A stretch of DNA of 64,000 bases from an uncultured bacterium (GTDB lineage Bacteria; Patescibacteriota; Saccharimonadia; UBA4664): assembly GCA_963720265.1 (NCBI GenBank), contig CAVRET010000001.1, positions 455,113 to 519,112 of the forward strand. The letters run 5' to 3'. Positions 1,333 through 23,480 of the stretch are shown here, one piece after another. The notes beneath the pieces were generated by a model. The model saw nothing but the letters and a program-made list of their open reading frames with translations, was not told the DNA's origin and searched no databases. The position numbers were made by a program, and so were the translations under genes. How positions within the stretch are numbered: position 1 is the first letter of the stretch; every line of letters starts with the position of its first letter.

Positions 1333-2180
1333 GCCGGCGCCTGGCCCACGTCGATGACCAACTTTTGGCCGGCTTCGAGCAATGCCAGGAGCCAGATTGT
1401 GCCAATCGCCCTGGCAACCTGCGGTGCGAGCCGGTTTTTGACCGTGACCGCAAGGTCGTTGGTCCAGCCCCGTTCATAGAAGCGGTTGTACAGATTGAGC
1501 GCTGCCACGGCCCTGGCTTCGGCTTTAAAATATTCGACTGGCCCAAGCTCTCGCGCTCGTACGAGTTCATGCTCAGAAAACTCTGGTTTGATCGGAAATA
1601 AGAGAAGAGCGAATGCAATGCCCATCTCGAAGTTCATGTGAGTGGTCATATGGCCCTTGGCGCCCCAGATTGCCCAATTTTTTTTCAGTAAGGCCGATGC
1701 CTTGCTGGTGTCGCCGGCTTTGACGTCGTCGGCCGCAAGTTCGGCCGCCTCGGCAATTTTTTGCTCGAGCGGAAAGTGGTGGGCCGGTGTTAAGCCGTCG
1801 GCGACATAGTGAGCTAGCCATGAGGCCTCGAAAGCCGAGCGAATGAGGTCGCCTGTGAGCAGGGTCTGCACGAGCGCCGTGTAGTGGCTATCGATGCGCG
1901 CGGGAATTGCTCCAGTGTCTGCGACTGGGTCGTACTGGTGATTGGGGTTGGGGCCGTGACTGACTTCATGCCGTACCGGCAGGCCCTTGGGACGTAGGCC
2001 CACTTTGGTGTTGAGGCCGTCCGGGCCGTTGTAGCCTTCAAAGTGCAGTAGTTGTTTGAGATTAGGAAAACTACCGGGCGGCAAGTAGGGTCCGATCATG
2101 TGGTAGGCTGCCGCATCGAGCCGCTGGTGGAGGCCGACCCGTTTGACAACCCGTTTTGATGTAATGAATCCAGCGTACAT
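1329..2180 (-). CDS. Hypothetical protein; the His-rich segment (ASWLAHYVADGLTPAHH) weakly resembles zinc-dependent phospholipase C / P1-nuclease-like folds.
   Basis: 283-aa ORF translationally coupled between recG and rsmD. No confident family assignment from sequence alone. Confidence 0.45.
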   Translation of the reverse strand: MYAGFITSKRVVKRVGLHQRLDAAAYHMIGPYLPPGSFPNLKQLLHFEGYNGPDGLNTKVGLRPKGLPVRHEVSHGPNPNHQYDPVADTGAIPARIDSHYTALVQTLLTGDLIRSAFEASWLAHYVADGLTPAHHFPLEQKIAEAAELAADDVKAGDTSKASALLKKNWAIWGAKGHMTTHMNFEMGIAFALLLFPIKPEFSEHELVRARELGPVEYFKAEARAVAALNLYNRFYERGWTNDLAVTVKNRLAPQVARAIGTIWLLALLEAGQKLVIDVGQAPA

Positions 2181-2182
2181 AG

Positions 2183-4243
2183 TTAATCGAGCGAGGTGAC
2201 GGCTTTGAGCGCATTCACACGGGCTGCTACCTGAGGATATTTTACCATAGCGGCCGGATCAGATAGGAAAGAGAGGGCAAATTTGCGCACATTGGCCAGG
2301 AATTTGACGTCTGAGAGATCGGCCAGTTGGAGGTTGAGCGTGCCATGTTGGCGGCGGCCGTAGATTTCGCCCGGGCCGCGTAGTTCGAGATCGATTTGGG
2401 CCAGACGGAACCCATCTTGGGTTTTTTCAAGCGCACGCAGACGATCGACCGTGCCGGGAGCAGCCGATTCGGCGAGCACAAAACAAAATGAGGGCTGATC
2501 GCTGCGGCCAACGCGGCCACGCAGCTGGTGGAGCGCCGCCAGCCCAAAGCGTTCGGCGCCGTCGATGAGCATAACCGTGGCGTTTGGGATATCAATGCCG
2601 ACTTCAATAACGCTTGTTGCTATGAGAACGTCGAGCCGGCCATCCGCTAGCTGCTCCATCACGGCCTGCTTTTCGGCTGGTTTCAGGCGGCCGTGAAGAA
2701 GACCAAGGCGCCGGTTTTTAAGCGGACCCTTGCTTAATCGTTCGTATTCGGCCGTAACCGACTTGGCACCGAGCTGGTCAGACGGATCAATCAGGGGACA
2801 GACAATAAAGGCCTGATGTCCGGCATCGATCTGTTGATTTATAAATTCGTAAGCTTGGGCGCGGTGTTTAGCGTCGAGCACACGAGTGGTAATGGGCTGA
2901 CGGCCCGGCGGCAAGCCGGCTATGACCGAGATATCAAGGTCGCCGTAGACAGTAAGCTGAAGTGTGCGCGGGATGGGTGTAGCTGTGAGTGAAAGCAAGT
3001 GCGGCAAGCGGCCGGACTTGGCCTTGAGCGTACTACGCTGATTTACTCCAAATCGGTGCTGTTCGTCGACAATAACGAGACCCAGGTTCGAAAATGTAAC
3101 GTCAGCCGACAGGAGCGCTTGCGTTCCGATGACCAACAATGGGCCGCCTTGGCTCAAACGTTCGCCGACAACCCGGCGCTCGGATGCGGGTTGGCCGCCG
3201 AGCACGAGCACTGCTTCGCAGCCGAGTTTCGCGAGCAACGGAGCAAGTCTCGCGGCGTGTTGGCGTGCCAGTACTTCGGTCGGAACCATCAGCGCAGTCT
3301 GGTAGCTGGCCTGCATTGCCATAACCGCCGCCATGACAGCCACTACGGTTTTGCCTGAGCCGACATCCCCTTCGAGCAGGCGGTTCATTGGCTGGTCCTT
3401 GGCCAGGTCCTGGAAAATTTCCCAGGCGGCCTGTTTTTGCTCGGGCGTGAGCTCAAAGTCCAACGATTGCACAAACTTTCTGGCTACATCGACCTGAAAC
3501 GCCACACCTGGGGCGGTCTCGGTCTTGATCTCATGCTTTATAACAAGGCTGGCTAGTACCAGGAACCAGACTTCCTCAAAGGCCAGCCGGTGACGGGCCT
3601 TGGCAAGCGATGCCTCAGTGCTGGGTGAATGGATTTCGCGCAAGGCTTTGGCTCGAGGCATGAGTTTGGCCTGCTTTACCAGTTCGGGCGGCAGGGTTTC
3701 GTCGATAGTGTCGACGAGCGGCAGAAGCGGCTCTATGAGGGCGCGCAATTGTTTGCTGGAAAGCCCCTCGGTTTCCGGGTAGATCGGCACGATGCGCGCG
3801 GTGTCACGGGGGCTGCGATCAGGCCCGAGAACTTCAATGGCCGGCGACTGGAGAGCGAGATCGGCATTTTTAAATTTGAGCTGGCCGGACACGAGTACGG
3901 GAGCTCCGGGTGACAGCGATTTCGCAAGCCACGGCTGATTAAACCAAATAGCTTTTACTGTGCCGGTATTGTCGGAGATGATGGCTTCGGTGAGGTGCAG
4001 CTTGCGAGCTCTGGCATAGCGGCTCGCCACGCGTTCAATCTCGCCTTTAAACGTAACATTGCCCGGCCGCATCAGCCGAATTGGGATAATGTGTGAGAAA
4101 TCGTCGTAGCGGCGGGGGAAATGATTAACGAGGTCGCCGGCCGTAGTAAGGCCGAGGCGCTCAAGCTTTTGGGCTACAGATGGGCCCACGCCCTTGAGCG
4201 AGCCGATTGGCCGTTGCTGCCAGTCATAATCCGATTTCTCCAT
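2183..4243 (-). CDS. recG: ATP-dependent DNA helicase RecG
   Basis: 686-aa ORF with an N-terminal wedge/OB region, Walker A GDVGSGKT, DEQH box (VIVDEQHRFG) and the C-terminal helicase motifs typical of RecG. Confidence 0.9.
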   Translation of the reverse strand: MEKSDYDWQQRPIGSLKGVGPSVAQKLERLGLTTAGDLVNHFPRRYDDFSHIIPIRLMRPGNVTFKGEIERVASRYARARKLHLTEAIISDNTGTVKAIWFNQPWLAKSLSPGAPVLVSGQLKFKNADLALQSPAIEVLGPDRSPRDTARIVPIYPETEGLSSKQLRALIEPLLPLVDTIDETLPPELVKQAKLMPRAKALREIHSPSTEASLAKARHRLAFEEVWFLVLASLVIKHEIKTETAPGVAFQVDVARKFVQSLDFELTPEQKQAAWEIFQDLAKDQPMNRLLEGDVGSGKTVVAVMAAVMAMQASYQTALMVPTEVLARQHAARLAPLLAKLGCEAVLVLGGQPASERRVVGERLSQGGPLLVIGTQALLSADVTFSNLGLVIVDEQHRFGVNQRSTLKAKSGRLPHLLSLTATPIPRTLQLTVYGDLDISVIAGLPPGRQPITTRVLDAKHRAQAYEFINQQIDAGHQAFIVCPLIDPSDQLGAKSVTAEYERLSKGPLKNRRLGLLHGRLKPAEKQAVMEQLADGRLDVLIATSVIEVGIDIPNATVMLIDGAERFGLAALHQLRGRVGRSDQPSFCFVLAESAAPGTVDRLRALEKTQDGFRLAQIDLELRGPGEIYGRRQHGTLNLQLADLSDVKFLANVRKFALSFLSDPAAMVKYPQVAARVNALKAVTSLD

Positions 4244-4394
4244 CAGACTAGTGTAACAAATTGGCTGGCGTATTTTTTAGAACTCGTCTAAGCCTTGAAC
4301 GGTGAGTTCAAAACTTGGACGAGCCTCCCCGCGCTGCAGGCGGCAGCGCGGGGAGTTCCCCTTGTTTCTTTCGGCTCGGGTTGCCGTTCTAGTA

Positions 4395-5594
4395 TCACCG
4401 CCAGCGGATCTTGGCGCCCACGTACCAGGGAGGCACTTCACCGTTCTGAAGCGGTCCGGTGCCGTGCCGGGTGAATGGTTTTTCATCCTGGGCGGGAGCG
4501 CTACTGGCACGGCGTTTGGCGCCGGCCCGCTTCTTGATTCGGATCTCAAGGTTGCCGCCGTAGATACCGCGCACTGCTACCTTGCCGTCGACCGTGAGCT
4601 CGCACATGAGCTCGATACCATGATCGAGTGTCGGTATCTGCGTGGCCGCCTGATAATCGGCGAGCCGCATCCGGATGGTACCGGTTGGTACCTGCTCCTC
4701 GCCGTCGGGGCGAAGGCTGTAGGCTACCGGCAGCGACAGGCTAGCCTTGGGCGTCACGACGACGATCTTATCGGGCGAGAGCGCCAGGCCCGGATCGCGG
4801 AACATCCAGTCCGGCGCGAAATTGTTGCGGTCGAGCGCCAGGTTTACCGCATCGACGTCGCACAGGTTGGCGGCATTGGCGGCGCCGAGTCTGTCAGCAT
4901 AGAATGCCGCCAGCGACCCATCGGTGATGAGTTCGATGATCTCGTGGCCGCCCGACCTGATCCAGAGCTGGACTTGGAGGGTCCGAATCTGGTTATTGAA
5001 AAAGGTATCGCGGTGGTAGATCGACCCGTTCAGGAGTTCTCGCACTACCACGCCGATGAACGCGCCTTCAATCTCGGCAATGAGATTGCGCACGCGCCGG
5101 AGGCAAGCCGTTGCCTCCGGGTAGCCCGTGGGCCTCCAGTGGTCATACAGCCTGGCCACCACCCTACGAGCCTGCTCGAGAGCGGCGTCAAGTTCGCTCA
5201 CGCACACGTGGCGGGTTCGGAGCGTACTTGCCTGTGCTGCGAGCTCGGCCAGATCGGCGGCCAGCGTGTCGTAGTTCTCGACACGCCTTTGCCGTTTGGC
5301 ATGCTCGGTGTAGTGATACTGAAGGCTCGACGCTACGGGAGTGTCGCAAACTTCTTCGCCAGCTGCATCGACCACCACATAGGTGCGCCTCCAGATGGAG
5401 ACGGCTGGATCGATTTCGATTGCGATCAGGTCGTCTGGATGGGCGACCAGCATCGGCGGCACGATGGTCCGTGCGCACAGCCCATAGTCATCCTCATAGC
5501 GTACATGTACCAGGTGTCCGCGGACCTCGACCGAAAAAGCCGACGGCAGCGTGTTGACATCTCCCACGGCAAACCCCTTCCGCTGATTTTTCAA
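4395..5594 (-). CDS. Hypothetical protein (399 aa), function unknown
   Basis: Long ORF with balanced amino-acid composition on the minus strand. The overlapping plus-strand ORF 4302..5636 is Arg-rich and antisense-like. No recognisable family motif. Confidence 0.5.
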   Translation of the reverse strand: MKNQRKGFAVGDVNTLPSAFSVEVRGHLVHVRYEDDYGLCARTIVPPMLVAHPDDLIAIEIDPAVSIWRRTYVVVDAAGEEVCDTPVASSLQYHYTEHAKRQRRVENYDTLAADLAELAAQASTLRTRHVCVSELDAALEQARRVVARLYDHWRPTGYPEATACLRRVRNLIAEIEGAFIGVVVRELLNGSIYHRDTFFNNQIRTLQVQLWIRSGGHEIIELITDGSLAAFYADRLGAANAANLCDVDAVNLALDRNNFAPDWMFRDPGLALSPDKIVVVTPKASLSLPVAYSLRPDGEEQVPTGTIRMRLADYQAATQIPTLDHGIELMCELTVDGKVAVRGIYGGNLEIRIKKRAGAKRRASSAPAQDEKPFTRHGTGPLQNGEVPPWYVGAKIRWR

Positions 5595-5624
5595 TCGGAT
5601 TCTAAATTTATTAGCTGTCCTGCG

Positions 5625-6815
5625 TTAATTGACTAGCTTGTAGAATTCGGTTTTTCCAATGTTGATCTCGTCGCCGGGCTTCACGGCTTGCGCCGGGTCG
5701 GTCACAGTTTCGCCGTTTAAGCGGATGCCGTTTTGCTCTATAAGTGTGCGGACCTGGTTGCGCGAGAGTTTAATCCCCTGCTCCACCAGCAGATCGATGA
5801 GAACGGCCGGCTTTTTGTCGACTTTGAGCTCTTTGATCATATCCTTGGTGGGGCCCAGGTGATCACGGAAGGTGGCGTTCCAGGATTCCTCGGCTTTAAG
5901 GGCTGCTGTGTCCCCATGGTAGAGGCGCACGATTTCGCGCGCGAGCGAGGCCTTGGAGTCGCGCGGGTTGGCGCCTTCGGCCAGGGTTTTTACCAGGCCG
6001 TCAATGGTTTCGAGCGGAATATCGGTGCAGAGCTTGTAGTAGGGAGCGATGAGGTTGTCCGGAACGCTCATGACTTTACCGTACATATCGATGGGCGCGT
6101 CGGTGACGCCGACGTAGTTGTCGAGTGACTTGGACATTTTTTTGACGCCATCGAGGCCAACCAGCAGGTCCAGGGTAAAAACGATCTGTGGGCGCTGGCC
6201 GAGTTTCTTTTGCAGTGCACGGCCGGCCATGAGGTTAAAGAGTTGATCCGAGCCACCAAATTCGACGTCGGCTTCGAGCGCCACTGAGTCGTAGGCTTGC
6301 ATGAGCGGATAGAGCACCTCGTGCAGGGCCAGCTCGTGGCCCTCGCTCAAGCGCTTTTTGAAGTCATCACGTTCGATGGTTTGAGCAACCGAAACGTTTG
6401 AAGCCAAATTGAGCAAATCAGCAAAGCTCAGCTTGGCCAGCCATTCGGAGTTATAGCGGATTTCGGCTTTCTTAACATCCAGGAGGAGGTCAACCTGATC
6501 GAGATAGGTTTTAACATTTTCGGCAATGTCCTTGTCGGACAGCATCGGCCGGGTCTTGTCGCGCCCGGACGGGTCCCCTACTTTCGTGGTGTAGTCGCCG
6601 ATGAGAAAGATGACGGTATGGCCAAGCTCTTGGAATTTGCGGAGTTTGTGAAGTACGAGTGCATGACCAATGTGGAGATCCGGCCGTGTGGGATCGACGC
6701 CAAATTTGATCCGCAGCTTGTGCTTTTTGCCGGTGAGGGCGGCTTCAAGTTCTTCGCGGCCAATAATTTGGTCAACGCCGCGGGTGAGGAGATCGGTGAG
6801 ATCGGATTTGTCCAT
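5625..6815 (-). CDS. tyrS: Tyrosine--tRNA ligase
   Basis: 396 aa with class I aaRS HIGH (PDLHIGH), KMSKS (KKMSKS), and a C-terminal S4-like domain. Confidence 0.9.
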   Translation of the reverse strand: MDKSDLTDLLTRGVDQIIGREELEAALTGKKHKLRIKFGVDPTRPDLHIGHALVLHKLRKFQELGHTVIFLIGDYTTKVGDPSGRDKTRPMLSDKDIAENVKTYLDQVDLLLDVKKAEIRYNSEWLAKLSFADLLNLASNVSVAQTIERDDFKKRLSEGHELALHEVLYPLMQAYDSVALEADVEFGGSDQLFNLMAGRALQKKLGQRPQIVFTLDLLVGLDGVKKMSKSLDNYVGVTDAPIDMYGKVMSVPDNLIAPYYKLCTDIPLETIDGLVKTLAEGANPRDSKASLAREIVRLYHGDTAALKAEESWNATFRDHLGPTKDMIKELKVDKKPAVLIDLLVEQGIKLSRNQVRTLIEQNGIRLNGETVTDPAQAVKPGDEINIGKTEFYKLVN

Positions 6816-16177: not shown

Positions 16178-18724
16178 TTATTCGGCGGGCGACGTAGAAG
16201 CCGGGGACTCGGTTTCGGCTTCGTCGACGGCCGACTCAACAGGGGTGGTGGTTCGCTGTGCGGCGGTTAGCGCCAATTCGTCGCCGCGGCGGGTCACGGT
16301 AATGTTGTCGCCGGCTTTGAAACGGCCGTCGAGCAGACCGGTTGCCAGCGGATCCTCGATGAGATCCTGGATGGCACGGCGCATAGGCCGGGCGCCTTGC
16401 TTCATATCGTAGCCCTTTTCCATCAGCAGCGTGCGGGCCGAAGGCGTAACGCGCAGTTTGAGCTCAGTGTCGTCGAGGCGCTTGGACAGTTCACCTATCT
16501 GGAGGGATAGGATTTTCTTGATGTCGTTTTGCGACAGGGTCTTGAATACGATCTGGGCGTCAATGCGGTTGAGGAACTCAGGCCGAAATTGTTTCTTAAG
16601 GTCCTCGAGCACTTTTTGTTTAACCTTGTCGTGCTCAGCCTCAAGCATTTTCTCTTCCCCGGCGGTTTCGGTCCGGAAGCCGAGCTGGACTTCTTTGTGC
16701 ATGTCCGAGGCGCCAACGTTACTGGTCATGATTACGACCGTGTTGCGGAAATCAACGCGGCGGCCTTTGGCGTCAGTGACATATCCGTCTTCGAGAATTT
16801 GCAGCAACATATTGAACACATCGGGGTGGGCTTTTTCGAGCTCGTCGAAGAGAATGAGGCTGTAGGGCTTGCGGCGGACCTGCTCGGTGAGCTGGCCGCC
16901 TTCGTCAAAGCCGACATAACCGGCAGGTGCTCCGACGAGCCGGGCGACGTTGTGCTTTTCCATGAATTCAGACATGTCGATCTTAATCATGGCATCGCGG
17001 TCGTGGAACAATTCTTCTGAGAGAACGCGGGCGAGCTCGGTTTTACCAACACCGGTGGGCCCGAGGAAAATGAAGCTGCCGATCGGCTGGCGTTCGTCGG
17101 CAATGCCGGTGCGAGAGCGTCGGATAGCCCTGGCAATGGCGGTCACGGCCTCATCTTGGCCGACGACGCGGCGCGCCAACGACTCCTCGAGCTTTATGAG
17201 ACTTTCGACTTCAGTCTTGATTAGGCGCGTGACGGGGATGCCGGTCATGAGGGATACAACGGCGGCAATGTCTTCGGGCGTGATCTTGATGGCGGCATCG
17301 GCGGCACCGTCGCGAATCTTCATTTGGGCGAGGCGGGATTGGAGCTGAGATTCACGCGTCTTGAGACGAGCGGCGAGTTCGAAATCTTGATCAAAGACGG
17401 CATTTTCAATGTCGTCGCGAATTTCCGAGACCTGCTTGCCGAGATTGCGCACTGTTTTGGACGAGCCTCCGCGCTTAATGCGGGCGAGCGAGGCGGCTTC
17501 GTCAATGAGATCAATGGCCTTGTCAGGCAGGAAGCGATCCGCCACGTAGCGCTTGGCAAGTTTGGAAGCTGACTCAATCGCCTCGTCGGTAATCTCAACG
17601 CGGTGATGCTCCTCATAGCGGGGGCGCAGCCCGCGCAACACGGCAATTGTTTCATCAACGCTGGTTTCGGGCACCTGCACAGGCTGGAAGCGACGCTCAA
17701 GCGCGGCGTCTTTTTCAATGTGTTTGCGGTATTCCTCAAGGGTGGTTGCGCCAATGACCTGAATTTCACCGCGGCTCAAAGCCGGCTTTAAAATGTTGGC
17801 CGCATCGATGGCGCCTTCGGCTGCACCGGCACCGACGACTGTGTGGAGCTCATCAATAAAGAGAATGATCTCCGGGCTGGCCTTGGCTTCATCGAGAATT
17901 TTTTTGAGACGCTCTTCAAACTCGCCGCGGTACTTGGTACCGGCGATGACTGAGGCGAGGTCGAGCATAATGAGGCGCTTGCTCTGCAGCATCTCCGGCA
18001 CTTCTTCGGCCACGATGCGCTGCGCCAGGCCTTCCGCAATAGCGGTCTTTCCGACACCGGGCTCACCAATGAGCACAGGGTTATTTTTCGTCCGCCGGCC
18101 GAGAATAGAAATGACACGGCCGATTTGGACCTCGCGGCCAACCATGGGGTCAAGCGCAGAATCCCGGGCCTTGGCCGTTAGGTCAATGCCAAAGTGGTCA
18201 AGCGCCGGAGTCTTGGACTTACCGCCGGGTTTGCCGGTGCGGGTGCTCTGGCGCTCCTCTTCGGCGTAAAAGTATTGTTGGTTGCCGAGATAGCCTTCGA
18301 GTTCGGCCCGAATGACGGCCGGATCGACTTGCAAATCGTTTTTGAGCAAGCTGATGGCGCGGGCACTTTTTTCGCTCAGGATAGCAAATAAGATGTGCTC
18401 GGTGCCACAATATGGTTGGCCGAATTCTTTGGCCACACGTAGTGAATATGTAAGTGTTCGCTTGGCGGTCTCGGAAGCGCCTTTGTAGCCGGTGCCGGCC
18501 AATTGCGGCGAAAAGCTCAATACGAGCTGGGCTTTTTCAAATGTGACGCCGACGTTTTTTAGAATTTTGGCTCCAATGGAGCTGTCCTGTTGTAGGACGC
18601 CAAGCAAAATGTGCTCGGTGCCAACGTAGCTTGAACCCATCTGGTTGGCGATGACCTCGGCATTCTCCAAACTACGCTTGGCGTTTTCAGTAAACCGATC
18701 GAACTGTGAACTAAAATCGGCCAT
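16178..18724 (-). CDS. clpC: ATP-dependent Clp protease ATP-binding subunit ClpC
   Basis: Two Clp_N repeats, two AAA+ modules ([16 protein letters not shown]), UVR-like motif between D1 and D2. Start set at [11 protein letters not shown] (ATG 18724). The longer ORF to 18976 has an implausible N-terminus. Confidence 0.9.
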
Positions 18725-18812
18725 TTGTGAAGTGTCCTTTCTCTTACCCTCCCACGCTGGAGCCGATGCGTCAAGAGTTGGAAAGGTGACGGTCCAGGCG
18801 AGATATGCATTT

Positions 18813-18840
18813 AGTATAGCAGCGCTGGCACTCAATGCAA
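18813..18840 (-). promoter_or_regulatory. Candidate sigma70-type promoter for clpC (-35 TTGCAT, 16-nt spacer, -10 TATACT on the minus strand)
   Basis: Seen in the reverse complement ~90 nt upstream of the clpC ATG. No CtsR heptad repeat was recognisable. Confidence 0.3.
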
Positions 18841-19084
18841 GAGAGTGCCAATTTTGCCACCACCAAGCTTTTGAATGATTTTTCGGCAGGGTGCTAAAGC
18901 CGGGCGCGAAGACCCAGAGAGCTGCTTGAGACTTATGTTGCCGTACAATTCCAGGAATTGGCTGAGAGCAAAGCACCTATGCGGATAATGATTGATTTCG
19001 CCGCACAACAGGCACAAACTCACAACTATAGAGTGTCCGGAACAAAGAGCCGGACCTTTGGTAGGGAAGAGAGGAGCAGTGGGT

Positions 19085-19246
19085 ATGTCAGGAGTGCATG
19101 CAGGGGTAGATCTCCTAGGTATGGGTGCGCGTGAGCGGCACGAGTTGCTCGCGGGAAACAGCGCGACATCAAGCGCGCTGCGCGAAAGTGCCAAAAGGGG
19201 TGCGCTCAACTACATTCCGCTGTCGTCGTTCCAGGCGCGGGTCTGA
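19085..19246 (+). CDS. Small protein P1 (53 aa): MSGVHAGVDLLGMGARERHELLAGNSATSSALRESAKRGALNYIPLSSFQARV
   Basis: ATG preceded by GAGAGGAG (Shine-Dalgarno-like). A paralog of the next ORF: same length, 20/53 identical residues with no gaps, and shared C-terminal LSSFxAR[VI]. Confidence 0.5.
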   Translation: MSGVHAGVDLLGMGARERHELLAGNSATSSALRESAKRGALNYIPLSSFQARV

Positions 19247-19268
19247 GGCTCGAGGAAAGGGATAGGCA

Positions 19269-19430
19269 ATGCCGGTCGTACAGGTCGGTGCCTCGCTCGC
19301 GGACATGAGTCCCAGAGCTAGGCACCAGTGGCTTGCCAGTAGTGCGCCCGTGGCGGTGGCTGCGCGAAGGCGTGCCCGTCAACAAGCACAGGGGAAGGTA
19401 GCCCTATCATCCTTCAACGCTCGCATCTAG
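19269..19430 (+). CDS. Small protein P2 (53 aa): MPVVQVGASLADMSPRARHQWLASSAPVAVAARRRARQQAQGKVALSSFNARI
   Basis: ATG preceded by GAGGAAAGGG, 22 nt after the P1 stop. Conserved residues relative to P1 are encoded by different synonymous codons (cgt/aga, cgg/agg, ctg/cta, tcg/tca), indicating selection at the protein level. Confidence 0.5.
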   Translation: MPVVQVGASLADMSPRARHQWLASSAPVAVAARRRARQQAQGKVALSSFNARI

Positions 19431-19442
19431 GAGAGGTGAACT

Positions 19443-19471
19443 GGGCTCCACCGCTCGCAGCAGTGGAGCCC
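19443..19471. terminator. GC-rich hairpin (9-bp perfect stem GGGCTCCAC/GTGGAGCCC, 11-nt loop) in the 47-nt gap between convergent P2 and the HExxH gene; candidate bidirectional terminator with no U-tract
   Basis: Seen directly in sequence. Confidence 0.35.
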
Positions 19472-19477
19472 AGGGGC

Positions 19478-21301
19478 CTATGTGACTACCTTTCCGAACC
19501 AGGAGATCAGCGCGTCCAGGCCAGGGCGGTGACCCTGCTTGCGCAGCGTGTTCATGAGGCAGAACATCTCCGGTAGATGCTGTTCCAGAATTCGCGCCCG
19601 CCTGGTCCAAGCCTGATCCTGGCTGCGCCTTGCGCTCAGCAACAGACCGATCCAGGCAGTTCGCTCGGTTGGGTCGAGATAGATGCCTTGGCAATACAAC
19701 GCCAAGGCATTGTCATACTCGCCGCGCGCGAAGCAATCATCTGCCGGGATGGGTTCAAGCCCATATCCCGTTGACTCGATCTGGGCGGCCCGCTCAAGGA
19801 GACCAACCAAGAACAGCGATTGCGCCCGCTCTTCCGGCTTGACCGCTTCCGCTTCGAGTACAAAGCGCAGCACGGTCGGGTTCTGCTCTGCGAGGTACGC
19901 GGATACGGCCGCTTCGATGTCTGCGGGCATAAAGCGCCGGTTGCGCAGTTGCCACATGGTTTCGTTGCACAGGTTGACGTCGTTTGCCGCAGCTTGCACT
20001 GCCGGTGACGCCGTGATTTCGATGGACTGCAGTGTCGTGATCGTTGCCTGAATGAAAACGGTCCAGGCTGGGCCGAGATGGCCGCGGGCCAAGAGCTCCG
20101 TCGCGGTATTGATGGTGGGTTCGTACCACCTCGCGAGATCGGCGGCGGCGGACGCGTGGTACCTGGCGGGACCATGTTCAAGTAGACCATGCCAGAAGCT
20201 GATCTGAACCGCAAAGGCCAGCACGCCATGCAATACTCCAAGCGTGGGCCGGGGATCGTCGCGCCACGGCGCGAACATTGTGGCCCTGCTTTCGTTTGGC
20301 GGGTAGACCCTGAGAAGTTCGTTGAGCAGCCCATGCTCGGTCTCGTGAAGCATGAGCCGCGCCAGGGTTACGGCATCAGGAGGTTCGGTCAGTGCCATGC
20401 CCCCGGGGCAGTCATCGATGGTAGAACTGCGCTCATCTCCTTCGTTTACCGGCTCGATGGGTGTCAGGCTAATAAGCAACCTTTTCACCCGCTCGAATCC
20501 GACCGGATCGCAGGCGGCGAGTATCTGACATGCCTCTGCAAAGAGAGCTTGCCAATGACCTGCATTGGTGATGCGTGCCCACTCGGCCGGCGGGTGAACA
20601 TTTCTGTACTGGTCCAGGTCATCGAGAACGACCTCATACCCGCTCGCCGGATCCTGAAGTCGTATGAACGACAGCCACGGAGGCTCGCTGGTGAGACTTG
20701 ATGCGAGCCTGACGTGATGATCGGCTTCAGCCAGGTCGAGTGCGACGCCGTCGCTTGACAGCCGCACCAAGCGGTCAGGCTCATCAGCCTCCATGATCGT
20801 GACGAGCCCTAGTGTCGGCAGAACGAGCGCGCCATTACGGACTGGTACCGGGAGATCGAAGGCCATCTGGGCACGGATGGCCATGGCGGCCAGCAGCGAA
20901 TTGAGGTGGCCGGCCATGAGTGTGAAATCTGGAGACTCCGTTTCTCTCGGGTCGTCGATTGCCCTGAGGATTTGGTTGGCCCAGTGCAGCGAAGTGGGCT
21001 GGCCGTAGAAGTATTCGTACATCAGCTCGGGGAAATCTTCCCCCAGCTTGATGAACAGCTCAACAGCCATGTCCATGCTCAGGCTTGCCGCTTGCGGCAA
21101 ATGAGGAAGCTCGACTACGACAACGCCGAGCTGGTGAACAGCATGCTGCAACCTGATCCTGCGAATTGCTTCGAGCAGGCCCGTCGCTTGGGCATTGGCT
21201 GTGCGAAAGTGTGACAGATACGGTTCGAGCGGTGAGACAACACCGTCGTCGGCTCCCATCTTAGGCCTTCCTGTTTGAGGTGCTTCCTTTGCTGGTTGCA
21301 A
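19478..21301 (-). CDS. HExxH-motif (zincin-like) putative metallopeptidase or peptide-modifying protein with C-terminal TPR-like repeats
   Basis: 607-aa ORF with LMLHETEHGLLNEL (HExxH plus nearby acidic and His residues) and C-terminal helical repeats (ALALYCQGIYLDPTERTAWIGLLLS). No other family motif recognised. Confidence 0.55.
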   Translation of the reverse strand: MQPAKEAPQTGRPKMGADDGVVSPLEPYLSHFRTANAQATGLLEAIRRIRLQHAVHQLGVVVVELPHLPQAASLSMDMAVELFIKLGEDFPELMYEYFYGQPTSLHWANQILRAIDDPRETESPDFTLMAGHLNSLLAAMAIRAQMAFDLPVPVRNGALVLPTLGLVTIMEADEPDRLVRLSSDGVALDLAEADHHVRLASSLTSEPPWLSFIRLQDPASGYEVVLDDLDQYRNVHPPAEWARITNAGHWQALFAEACQILAACDPVGFERVKRLLISLTPIEPVNEGDERSSTIDDCPGGMALTEPPDAVTLARLMLHETEHGLLNELLRVYPPNESRATMFAPWRDDPRPTLGVLHGVLAFAVQISFWHGLLEHGPARYHASAAADLARWYEPTINTATELLARGHLGPAWTVFIQATITTLQSIEITASPAVQAAANDVNLCNETMWQLRNRRFMPADIEAAVSAYLAEQNPTVLRFVLEAEAVKPEERAQSLFLVGLLERAAQIESTGYGLEPIPADDCFARGEYDNALALYCQGIYLDPTERTAWIGLLLSARRSQDQAWTRRARILEQHLPEMFCLMNTLRKQGHRPGLDALISWFGKVVT

Positions 21302-21360
21302 GGTTTAGGGCCTATTGTAAGGATTTAACCTGCCCGACTCAATTACTGACTAGTTTTTCA

Positions 21361-22739: not shown

Positions 22740-23480
22740 CTACAGCAGCGGAAACCTTTGGAGGATTTCCTGCAATGCTTGGGTTATGTTCTGAAGTTGG
22801 CCCCGGCTTTTGCAATGGCTCAGTAGGACGCCGGCGATGCGGCGCAAAGCGGGATGTCCCCTGATGTAATCGCTCGCGGCATCATATGAGCCAAGCATCG
22901 CGTTGGCTCGGTCGAGCGCCACAAAAGCAGCCGCCAGCTCTTCCGGAGCGCTGCATTCCGCAAGCAGTACTTCCGCAAGAAACGCGAGTCTGGGTTCACG
23001 GCGGATAGCGGTTCGGGCGTGGCTATGGTGACGAGTAATGCGGTCGCGCCTCTCCTGGTTGGCGTTGATCCGATCCTTGGTCTTGGTGAAAGTACTGACT
23101 GCAAGCGTGCGAATAGCTGAGTCCCACAGCAGCTCGCTGAGTTCAGGCGGAATTACGAGTACCACTCGCTGATGCTCCAATGGCAGGTGCAGACGATGGT
23201 TACGGCTCGCCATGACGAACTCTTCCCGCTCATTCTCGAGATTACTACCACCATCAGGCATGATCAGTTCAATGAGCCATTCGCCGTACTGGCCTTTTCC
23301 GAAATCGACTTTTTTGCCGGCGCACAAGACGAGTGCTGCCGCGAGAACAGCCAGTCTTCGGAAACCACGGGGCCTGCGAGACAGTTGTCCAAACCACGCC
23401 CTGAGGGCGTCATCGCTTTCAAATGCGCGTCGCAGTGCCGCGAGCTCAGCCTCAGTTGGCACCATTCGAGCCGGCTTCAT
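22740..23480 (-). CDS. Hypothetical protein (246 aa)
   Basis: ORF upstream of nusA where rimP is normally found; no RimP features. Function unknown. Confidence 0.45.
   Translation of the reverse strand: MKPARMVPTEAELAALRRAFESDDALRAWFGQLSRRPRGFRRLAVLAAALVLCAGKKVDFGKGQYGEWLIELIMPDGGSNLENEREEFVMASRNHRLHLPLEHQRVVLVIPPELSELLWDSAIRTLAVSTFTKTKDRINANQERRDRITRHHSHARTAIRREPRLAFLAEVLLAECSAPEELAAAFVALDRANAMLGSYDAASDYIRGHPALRRIAGVLLSHCKSRGQLQNITQALQEILQRFPLL

Follow-up and report, generated by a model that had tools for sequence, protein, structure and literature searches.

The aKG-HExxH enzymes have been known as oxygenases only since 2024. They use Fe(II) and alpha-ketoglutarate (aKG) to hydroxylate the beta-carbon of His, Asp, Phe, Gln or Pro in ribosomal peptides, and the characterised members act on peptides encoded alongside them (PMC12636437, PMC13060819, PMC12257519). 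Two of them, PflC and PosC, also cleave the peptide backbone oxidatively (PMC12636437). Here we examine a pair of tandem 53-codon genes in a 64-kb stretch of DNA (the window) from an uncultured bacterium of the Saccharimonadia. An earlier note, made from the sequence without database searches, had picked out the pair between clpC and a gene for a protein with an HExxH motif. We find that this convergent neighbour encodes a predicted member of the aKG-HExxH family and that the two small genes and the enzyme gene are present or absent together. They probably form a small cassette for a peptide made on the ribosome and modified after translation (RiPP).

Which described systems come closest? In the Fxs system, a precursor (FxsA/SjiA; TIGR04268, NF040585), a radical-SAM/SPASM enzyme (FxsB) and an HExxH hydroxylase (FxsC/SjiH; TIGR04267) together make the triceptides, RiPPs of Actinomycetota. 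In the PflA/PflC and PosA/PosC systems of Pseudomonas, consecutive Gln residues are beta-hydroxylated and the C-terminal ARMD is removed oxidatively, leaving an amide (PMC12636437). At its cleavage site PosC needs Ala (or Gly), while each of Arg, Met and Asp can be spared singly; Gln or Asn, in hydroxylated form, may precede the site.

The hydroxylase gene and its two small neighbours

If the HExxH gene is not a protease gene, what does it encode? It occupies positions 19478–21259 on the minus strand, 48 nt from the peptide genes, and specifies 593 residues from the ATG at 21259; extended to the TTG at 21301, the open reading frame (ORF) has 607. The earlier description of an HExxH/TPR protein holds for the motif, HETEH, and for the C-terminal TPR region, but the protease reading attached to it fails by hidden Markov model and by fold. 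The protein scores 97.6 bits against NCBIfam TIGR04267 (IPR026337; cutoff 40) over residues 254–416, while a search of it against Pfam gave no match and no peptidase family. It keeps all 24 of the residues that are invariant among 40 homologues, itself included; H305, E306, H309, W332, R333, D335, P336, R337, P338, G341 and G345 are among them (W-R-x-D-P-R-P). The family profile, run against the PDB, finds 22nu_A (E 1e-93) as well as ChlH (8s5f; E 2e-21), and positions ~470–590 match TPR proteins. The AlphaFold2 model (pLDDT 85.9, pTM 0.86) matches in Foldseek the crystal structures of SjiH (22ob; E 2e-17, TM 0.81) and of the HExxH domain of ChlBH (8s5f; E 2e-7, TM 0.70). Because of the TIGR04267 score, the invariant residues and the SjiH/ChlBH fold of the model, we assign the product to the Fe/alpha-ketoglutarate HExxH peptide beta-hydroxylases, here with a C-terminal TPR domain, and not to the zinc metalloproteases. 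Homologues of about 600 residues are plentiful in Actinomycetota, at 30% identity at most. An attempt to place the enzyme in a subfamily by similarity failed, since it is 27–31% identical to every one.

The two peptide genes lie on the plus strand. The first (ORF1, 19085–19246) encodes the 53-residue peptide MSGVHAGVDLLGMGARERHELLAGNSATSSALRESAKRGALNYIPLSSFQARV, a putative precursor whose conserved tail is its C-terminus; its paralogue (ORF2, 19269–19430) encodes MPVVQVGASLADMSPRARHQWLASSAPVAVAARRRARQQAQGKVALSSFNARI, also of 53 residues, and 22 nt separate the two. A purine-rich, Shine-Dalgarno-like element precedes each: GAGAGGAG at 19069–19076 and GAGGAAAGGG at 19252–19261. All of these values, recomputed, agree with those first reported. 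Both peptides are basic and hydrophilic.

Are these ORFs genes, or do they stand open by chance? The two peptides align without a gap at 20 of 53 positions, reproducing the identity claimed for them, with a BLASTP E value of 2e-6 in this single comparison. When peptide 2 was shuffled 100,000 times, no more than 15 identities were obtained and 20 were never reached. Different codons are used at 14 of the 20 identical residues, and identity of the DNA at codon positions 1, 2 and 3 is 27/53, 34/53 and 13/53 (51, 64 and 25%; chi-square p 1.7e-4). The five other frames contain stops in both copies, the minus-strand alternative among them, and identity there is 7–15 of 55–56. An Rfam scan of 18000–20500 gave no match, and ORF1 is annotated as a gene in two assemblies. 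Because identity is at chance in the third position and 64% in the second, and because the other frames are closed, we regard ORF1 and ORF2 as selected peptide genes, and their being real genes as very probable. The codon pattern thus bears out the purifying selection at protein level that had been argued from synonymous codons; judged by it, the pair appears to be an old duplication kept by such selection, neither a recent DNA repeat nor a pair of chance ORFs.

What ties the peptides to the enzyme is their common inheritance. The window ClpC is 84–94% identical to proteins of metagenome-assembled genomes (MAGs) of Candidatus Saccharimonadia, and the window and its closest relatives have a common gene order: L19, RNase HII, pmbA, tldD, nusA, clpC, PNPOx, SDR, radA, PIN, PBP. 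In four relatives clpC comes straight after nusA, across a gap of 209–319 nt (L089 and L090, ClpC 94%; L091, 92%; L092, 88%). A fifth (L093, ClpC 85%) has two unrelated genes, of 216 and 109 residues, at this junction. In the alignments, the sequence upstream of the clpC start is homologous as far as an inverted repeat resembling CIRCE (controlling inverted repeat of chaperone expression), and homology ends at the nusA stop codon. Flanked by that stop codon on one side and by the conserved leader of clpC on the other is a block of ~2.45 kb (~18900–21360, left edge about ±40 nt), comprising an upstream region, both peptide genes, a hairpin and the hydroxylase gene, and set among housekeeping genes. 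We found no flanking direct repeats or mobile-element signs at the insertion. The alignments point to a single insertion or deletion, at a junction where, by the flanking synteny, accessory genes come and go. Since peptides and enzyme are present or absent as one block in the comparison with these relatives, they are tied by co-inheritance. No other small-ORF candidate is found at the locus, where only 60–100 nt separate nusA from the enzyme gene.

The same comparison disposes of two features to which weight had been given. The clpC-proximal intergenic region is indeed long, 754 bp from the clpC start (18724) to the HExxH stop (19478) for the ~750 bp first reported. Its length is not itself a signal, because ~150 nt are conserved clpC promoter and CIRCE-like leader and the remainder is inserted block. 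The proposed link to tldD and pmbA falls away: both genes stand at the same position in the closest relative (L089), where neither the peptides nor the HExxH gene are present, and the peptides are therefore not tied to them.

Comparison with described precursor systems

How often does a small gene accompany an enzyme of this kind? We examined 80 genome loci and several metagenome contigs. The genome contigs were scanned with the patterns WRDDPRP[LIV]xG and LDD[LI]DP[YF]R; the window protein matches neither, so its close relatives would not be retrieved in this way. A small precursor gene adjoins the HExxH gene in ~65 of 87 homologous loci. Typically it is an upstream ORF of 55–75 residues with the shared leader (I/V)ESELVDL..V.L..LR....LRR, and its tail falls into one of several classes: GYNPQR(I/L)D, GGGERID or PGRAD; SWxx; PLITC; and F/W-(N/Q/E)-(S/A)-x-(L/I/V)-COOH. 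The last of these matches TIGR04268, and the other classes accompany standalone HExxH-TPR genes. Those upstream peptides of standalone genes that are not of FxSxx type (among L005–L084; for example L015 3603–3779, L080 3131–3758 and L017 3456–3848) were recognised by no NCBIfam model. Where they end in x-R-(I/L/V/F/A)-D, the tail is similar to the ARMD motif at which PosA and PflA are cleaved. Tandem precursor paralogues, in two or three copies at 38–76% identity, are found at L047 and L080.

The window locus resembles the Fxs system in several respects. The enzyme belongs to the same family and its modelled fold is that of SjiH, a TPR region is present as in the ~600-residue forms, and a small precursor gene adjoins it. 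The likeness extends to the tails, L-S-S-F-(Q/N)-A-R-(V/I)-COOH in the pair, ending F-Q-A-R-V in peptide 1 and F-N-A-R-I in peptide 2: position -5 is aromatic, -4 is Asn or Gln, -3 is small and the C-terminal residue is aliphatic. In the form F-(Q/N)-A-x-(V/I)-COOH they resemble FxSxx-COOH tails such as AAFQSSI, AGFNSAL and AGFEAVI. The Phe at -5 of the FxSxx pattern is kept while the Ser at -3 is replaced by Ala; the last of these examples (L076), which scores 31.4 bits on TIGR04268, also has Ala there. Aligned by hhalign with eight FxSxx peptides, the window pair gives a probability of 42% and P 2.7e-4 with collinear features (VDL, Arg33, tail), a weak signal that comes mostly from the tail; one of 300 column shuffles reached the observed score. 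There are also differences. The window peptides have no TIGR04268 match and their leader is not demonstrably related, the window has no radical-SAM gene, the orientation is convergent and the host is one of the Saccharimonadia, not an actinobacterium.

Does the tail resemble that of PosA and PflA instead? The latter ends ...F-D-Q-Q-Q-I-Q-A-R-M-D, against ...S-S-F-Q-A-R-V and ...S-S-F-N-A-R-I in the window. The enzymes belong to one superfamily, and the window tail is compatible with the site rules of PosC. However, the window peptides have a single Gln or Asn against four or five, no terminal Asp and a leader of ~45 residues against ~85, and their block has none of the MNIO-nitroreductase, GNAT or transporter genes of the Pseudomonas clusters. 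On this comparison the resemblance would be one of working, not of membership.

The standalone cassettes of actinobacteria share with the window an HExxH-TPR enzyme of equal length (~600 residues), the lack of a radical-SAM gene, precursors that are sometimes in tandem, and an aromatic-Asn/Gln step near the C-terminus. Their leader family differs from that of the window peptides, and their precursor lies upstream on the same strand. They are often found beside NB-ARC/TPR, MoxR-type (MoxR-AAA) and VMAP genes (as in L002), whereas the window block has housekeeping neighbours. Homology of the leader to the actinobacterial precursor family was considered and rejected, the score on a 68-sequence profile being no better than that of shuffles.

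The closest parallel in layout is found in the host clade itself. In a Candidatus Saccharibacteria MAG (L069, JBNQGE010000023.1), a tandem pair of paralogous peptides of 76 and 77 residues (5802–6386, minus strand) converges on a 677-residue TIGR04267 HExxH-TPR gene (3794–5827). The pair is 70% identical, of the form MSL(V/A)YENLY...LGSMVELMDAYDNHLPGM...KAGS(E/S)GS, and overlaps the enzyme gene by 26 nt. Each peptide gene has its own Shine-Dalgarno element, as in the window, and neither peptide was matched by an NCBIfam model. The likeness stops at the arrangement: the peptides are unrelated to those of the window (13–17% identical), the enzymes are 23% identical, and this locus has upstream an exporter of the MsbA/bacteriocin ABC type (1638–3467).

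A proposed cassette and its rivals

How might such a cassette work? The earlier suggestion that the pair is connected in a RiPP-like manner with the convergent HExxH gene remains the best reading, given the enzyme family, the co-inheritance and the precursor genes at homologous loci. On balance we think it probable that two precursors and one hydroxylase make up a RiPP-like cassette that is minimal and self-contained and that this Saccharimonadia genome took up in one block. Because they were gained as one block with an adjoining peptide hydroxylase, the peptides are most likely its substrates. Both would be translated from one short transcript ending at the hairpin at 19441–19473. The 593-residue enzyme would bind the peptide through its conserved N-terminal residues (M1, V4, G7, L10, M13, R16, R18, H19, L22, A23) and, with its aKG-HExxH and TPR domains, would oxidise the L-S-S-F-(Q/N)-A-R-(V/I) tail using Fe(II), alpha-ketoglutarate and O2. 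The likeliest site would be the beta-carbon of Gln50 or Asn50, with Phe49 as the alternative. Ala51 may then be hydroxylated at its alpha-carbon and the final three residues lost to give a C-terminal amide, as happens with PosC and PflC at Gln-ARMD. The proposed pathway would involve no radical-SAM cyclophane step. We infer the substrate relation, the type and site of modification and the role of the product, and any one specific site, taken alone, is rather improbable.

Several observations weigh against this reading. The peptides appear to be orphans. A word-indexed search of 5.8 billion proteins returned only the query itself, as did HMMER against 1.84 billion representatives, where the second match (P0122) was a spurious one to a repetitive, tail-fibre-like protein. 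A scan of metagenome DNA gave no homologue, and none came from tblastn with the window and all 93 loci as targets. The support for the peptides thus comes from a single paralogous pair. The homologue search that the earlier note had proposed as a check therefore yielded none, which by its own terms would speak against the pair; this absence is uninformative, however, because the relatives lack the entire cassette and not the peptides alone. Even with the threshold relaxed to E 10, neither peptide matched TIGR04268 or any model in Pfam or NCBIfam (the cutoff of TIGR04268/PF27839, the FxSxx-COOH cyclophane RiPP precursor model, is 28 bits, and positive controls from the loci scored 19–43 bits), and their score of 8.8 on the 68-member actinobacterial precursor profile is at shuffle level. 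Public gene calls include ORF1 and leave out ORF2, which has no called protein in the public collection, and codon-usage scoring, uninformative for ORFs so short, does not favour the frame. As to layout, nearly all actinobacterial loci have their precursor upstream of the enzyme gene and on its strand, against the convergent order here. The block contains no exporter or leader protease, the 64-kb window contains no ORF with CxxxCxxC that could be a radical-SAM candidate, and FxSxx-type tails go with an adjacent or fused radical-SAM gene in eight of nine loci. Finally, the likeness to PosC and PflC goes as far as superfamily and substrate tail.

What else might the pair be? The two could be real small proteins unrelated to the hydroxylase, a basic regulatory, toxin-like or adaptor pair that adjoins it by chance. 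Such a pair would account for the strong coding signature, for the basic, hydrophilic composition, for the convergent rather than co-directional order and for the lack of detectable homology to any precursor family. We nevertheless consider it unlikely: the peptides are gained or lost with the hydroxylase gene, enzymes of this family act on peptides encoded next to them and have no other candidate substrate at this locus, the layout recurs in L069, and the C-terminal 8-mer is strictly conserved, as modification sites typically are. Alternatively, the peptides could be divergent FxSxx-COOH (triceptide) precursors, in which an FxsB-like radical-SAM/SPASM enzyme with its gene elsewhere in the genome would cross-link Phe-x-Ala, and the HExxH enzyme would hydroxylate only after cyclisation, as ChlBH does. 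ChlH requires a pre-installed cyclophane for activity (PMC12636437), the closest homologues of the window enzyme include two that are linked to radical-SAM genes (L086, L088), and the tail, with its hhalign score and the precedent of Ala at -3, is of the right kind. This too is quite improbable, for the inserted block consists of the peptides and the HExxH gene only, the peptides escape TIGR04268, and standalone HExxH-TPR genes without a radical-SAM gene are the majority of the family, while at the FxSxx loci that gene is nearly always at hand and in the window it is missing.

Two further explanations touch the nature of the genes themselves. That the region is non-coding, a diverged duplication, an untranslated region or a small RNA in which the ORFs arose by chance, would fit the omission of ORF2 by public gene callers, the indifferent codon usage and the lack of homologues. 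It is very improbable in the face of third-position identity at the chance level beside 64% in the second, of two copies equal in length and gapless, each with its own Shine-Dalgarno element and closed in the other frames, and of the empty Rfam scan. Least credible of all, we think, is a protease–substrate pair, in which an HExxH zinc metalloprotease would cleave the peptides hydrolytically, perhaps helped by TldD/PmbA. The motif is there, PflC is proteolytic when the leader is absent (PMC12636437) and a TldD-type peptidase belongs to the biphenomycin cluster; yet by family and by fold the protein goes with SjiH and ChlH, which are Fe/aKG oxygenases, Pfam finds no peptidase, and tldD/pmbA are syntenic in a relative that lacks the cassette. 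We therefore retain the two-precursor, one-hydroxylase cassette as the preferred reading.

Neighbouring features and meaning of the proposed cassette

Between the two convergent stop codons lies a G+C-rich hairpin with arms at 19441–19455 and 19459–19473. A hairpin shared by the genes had been described with a stem of 9 bp; it is present, but its stem is longer, with arms of 15 nt that are 93% complementary. It folds at -32.5 kcal/mol (z -3.7), and 0 of 200 shuffles fold as well. A terminator scan did not report it, since no T-run follows. It is probably a two-way transcript end. Upstream, on the plus strand, a weak sigma-70-like promoter match (CTGAGA-16-GATAAT, 18962–18989) lies ~95 nt ahead of peptide gene 1. 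It agrees with 9 of 12 consensus positions, where 0.4 such sites are expected by chance, and is a consensus match only.

The clpC leader carries a signal of its own. At 18825–18851, ~100–125 nt upstream of clpC, the CIRCE-like inverted repeat reads cTGGCACTC-N9-GAGTGCCAa, with three mismatches to TTAGCACTC-N9-GAGTGCTAA. By chance, 0.01 such sites would be expected. After the repeat comes a TATACT -10-like box. The repeat is near-invariant in four Saccharimonadia relatives, and the arms are the canonical TTAGCACTC and GAGTGCTAA in L091. This conservation suggests HrcA-type heat-shock control of clpC in the lineage. The mechanically called clpC ORF (16178–18976, minus strand) extends 252 nt upstream beyond the real start; the conserved ATG is at 18724, giving 848 residues, as in all relatives.

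Other genes near the junction vary as well. The window nusA has no infB after it. Between tldD and nusA the window has a 246-residue ORF (22740–23480, minus strand) with no Pfam or NCBIfam match; L091 has a 241-residue gene at the matching place and L089 has none. In L093 a 567-residue gene and an ABC transporter are inserted between clpC and radA. We considered the 567-residue gene as a possible HExxH gene and rejected it, as its product is not an HExxH protein.

What does the cassette add to the known systems? A precursor beside an aKG-HExxH tailoring enzyme is of a kind already known and in principle no surprise. What is new is the orphan precursor family, the lack of a partner enzyme, the convergent layout common to another Saccharibacteria genome, and the host clade. 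Features of two characterised kinds of substrate, FxSxx and PosA/PflA, meet in the precursor tail, and each newly characterised enzyme of the family has so far enlarged its chemistry, from the hydroxylation of one residue after another to backbone cleavage. Made up of two precursors and a single enzyme within 2.4 kb, the cassette is near the minimum size for such systems and could be tested directly by co-expression. This makes it a good and cheap target for enzymology.

For the organism, every accessory gene in a Saccharimonadia genome is notable. Actinomycetota are the main reservoir of the enzyme family, and they include the known hosts of cultivated Saccharibacteria. A bolder scheme, unlikely as a whole, would be that of a two-component RiPP pathway independent of radical-SAM chemistry in a bacterium of the candidate phyla radiation whose genome is very small. 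In it, orphan 53-residue precursors would be beta-hydroxylated at Gln50 or Asn50 by a standalone aKG-HExxH-TPR enzyme and then trimmed oxidatively to ...LSSF(Q/N)-NH2, the cassette having been acquired horizontally from Actinomycetota, and the product might act in the relationship between episymbiont and host.

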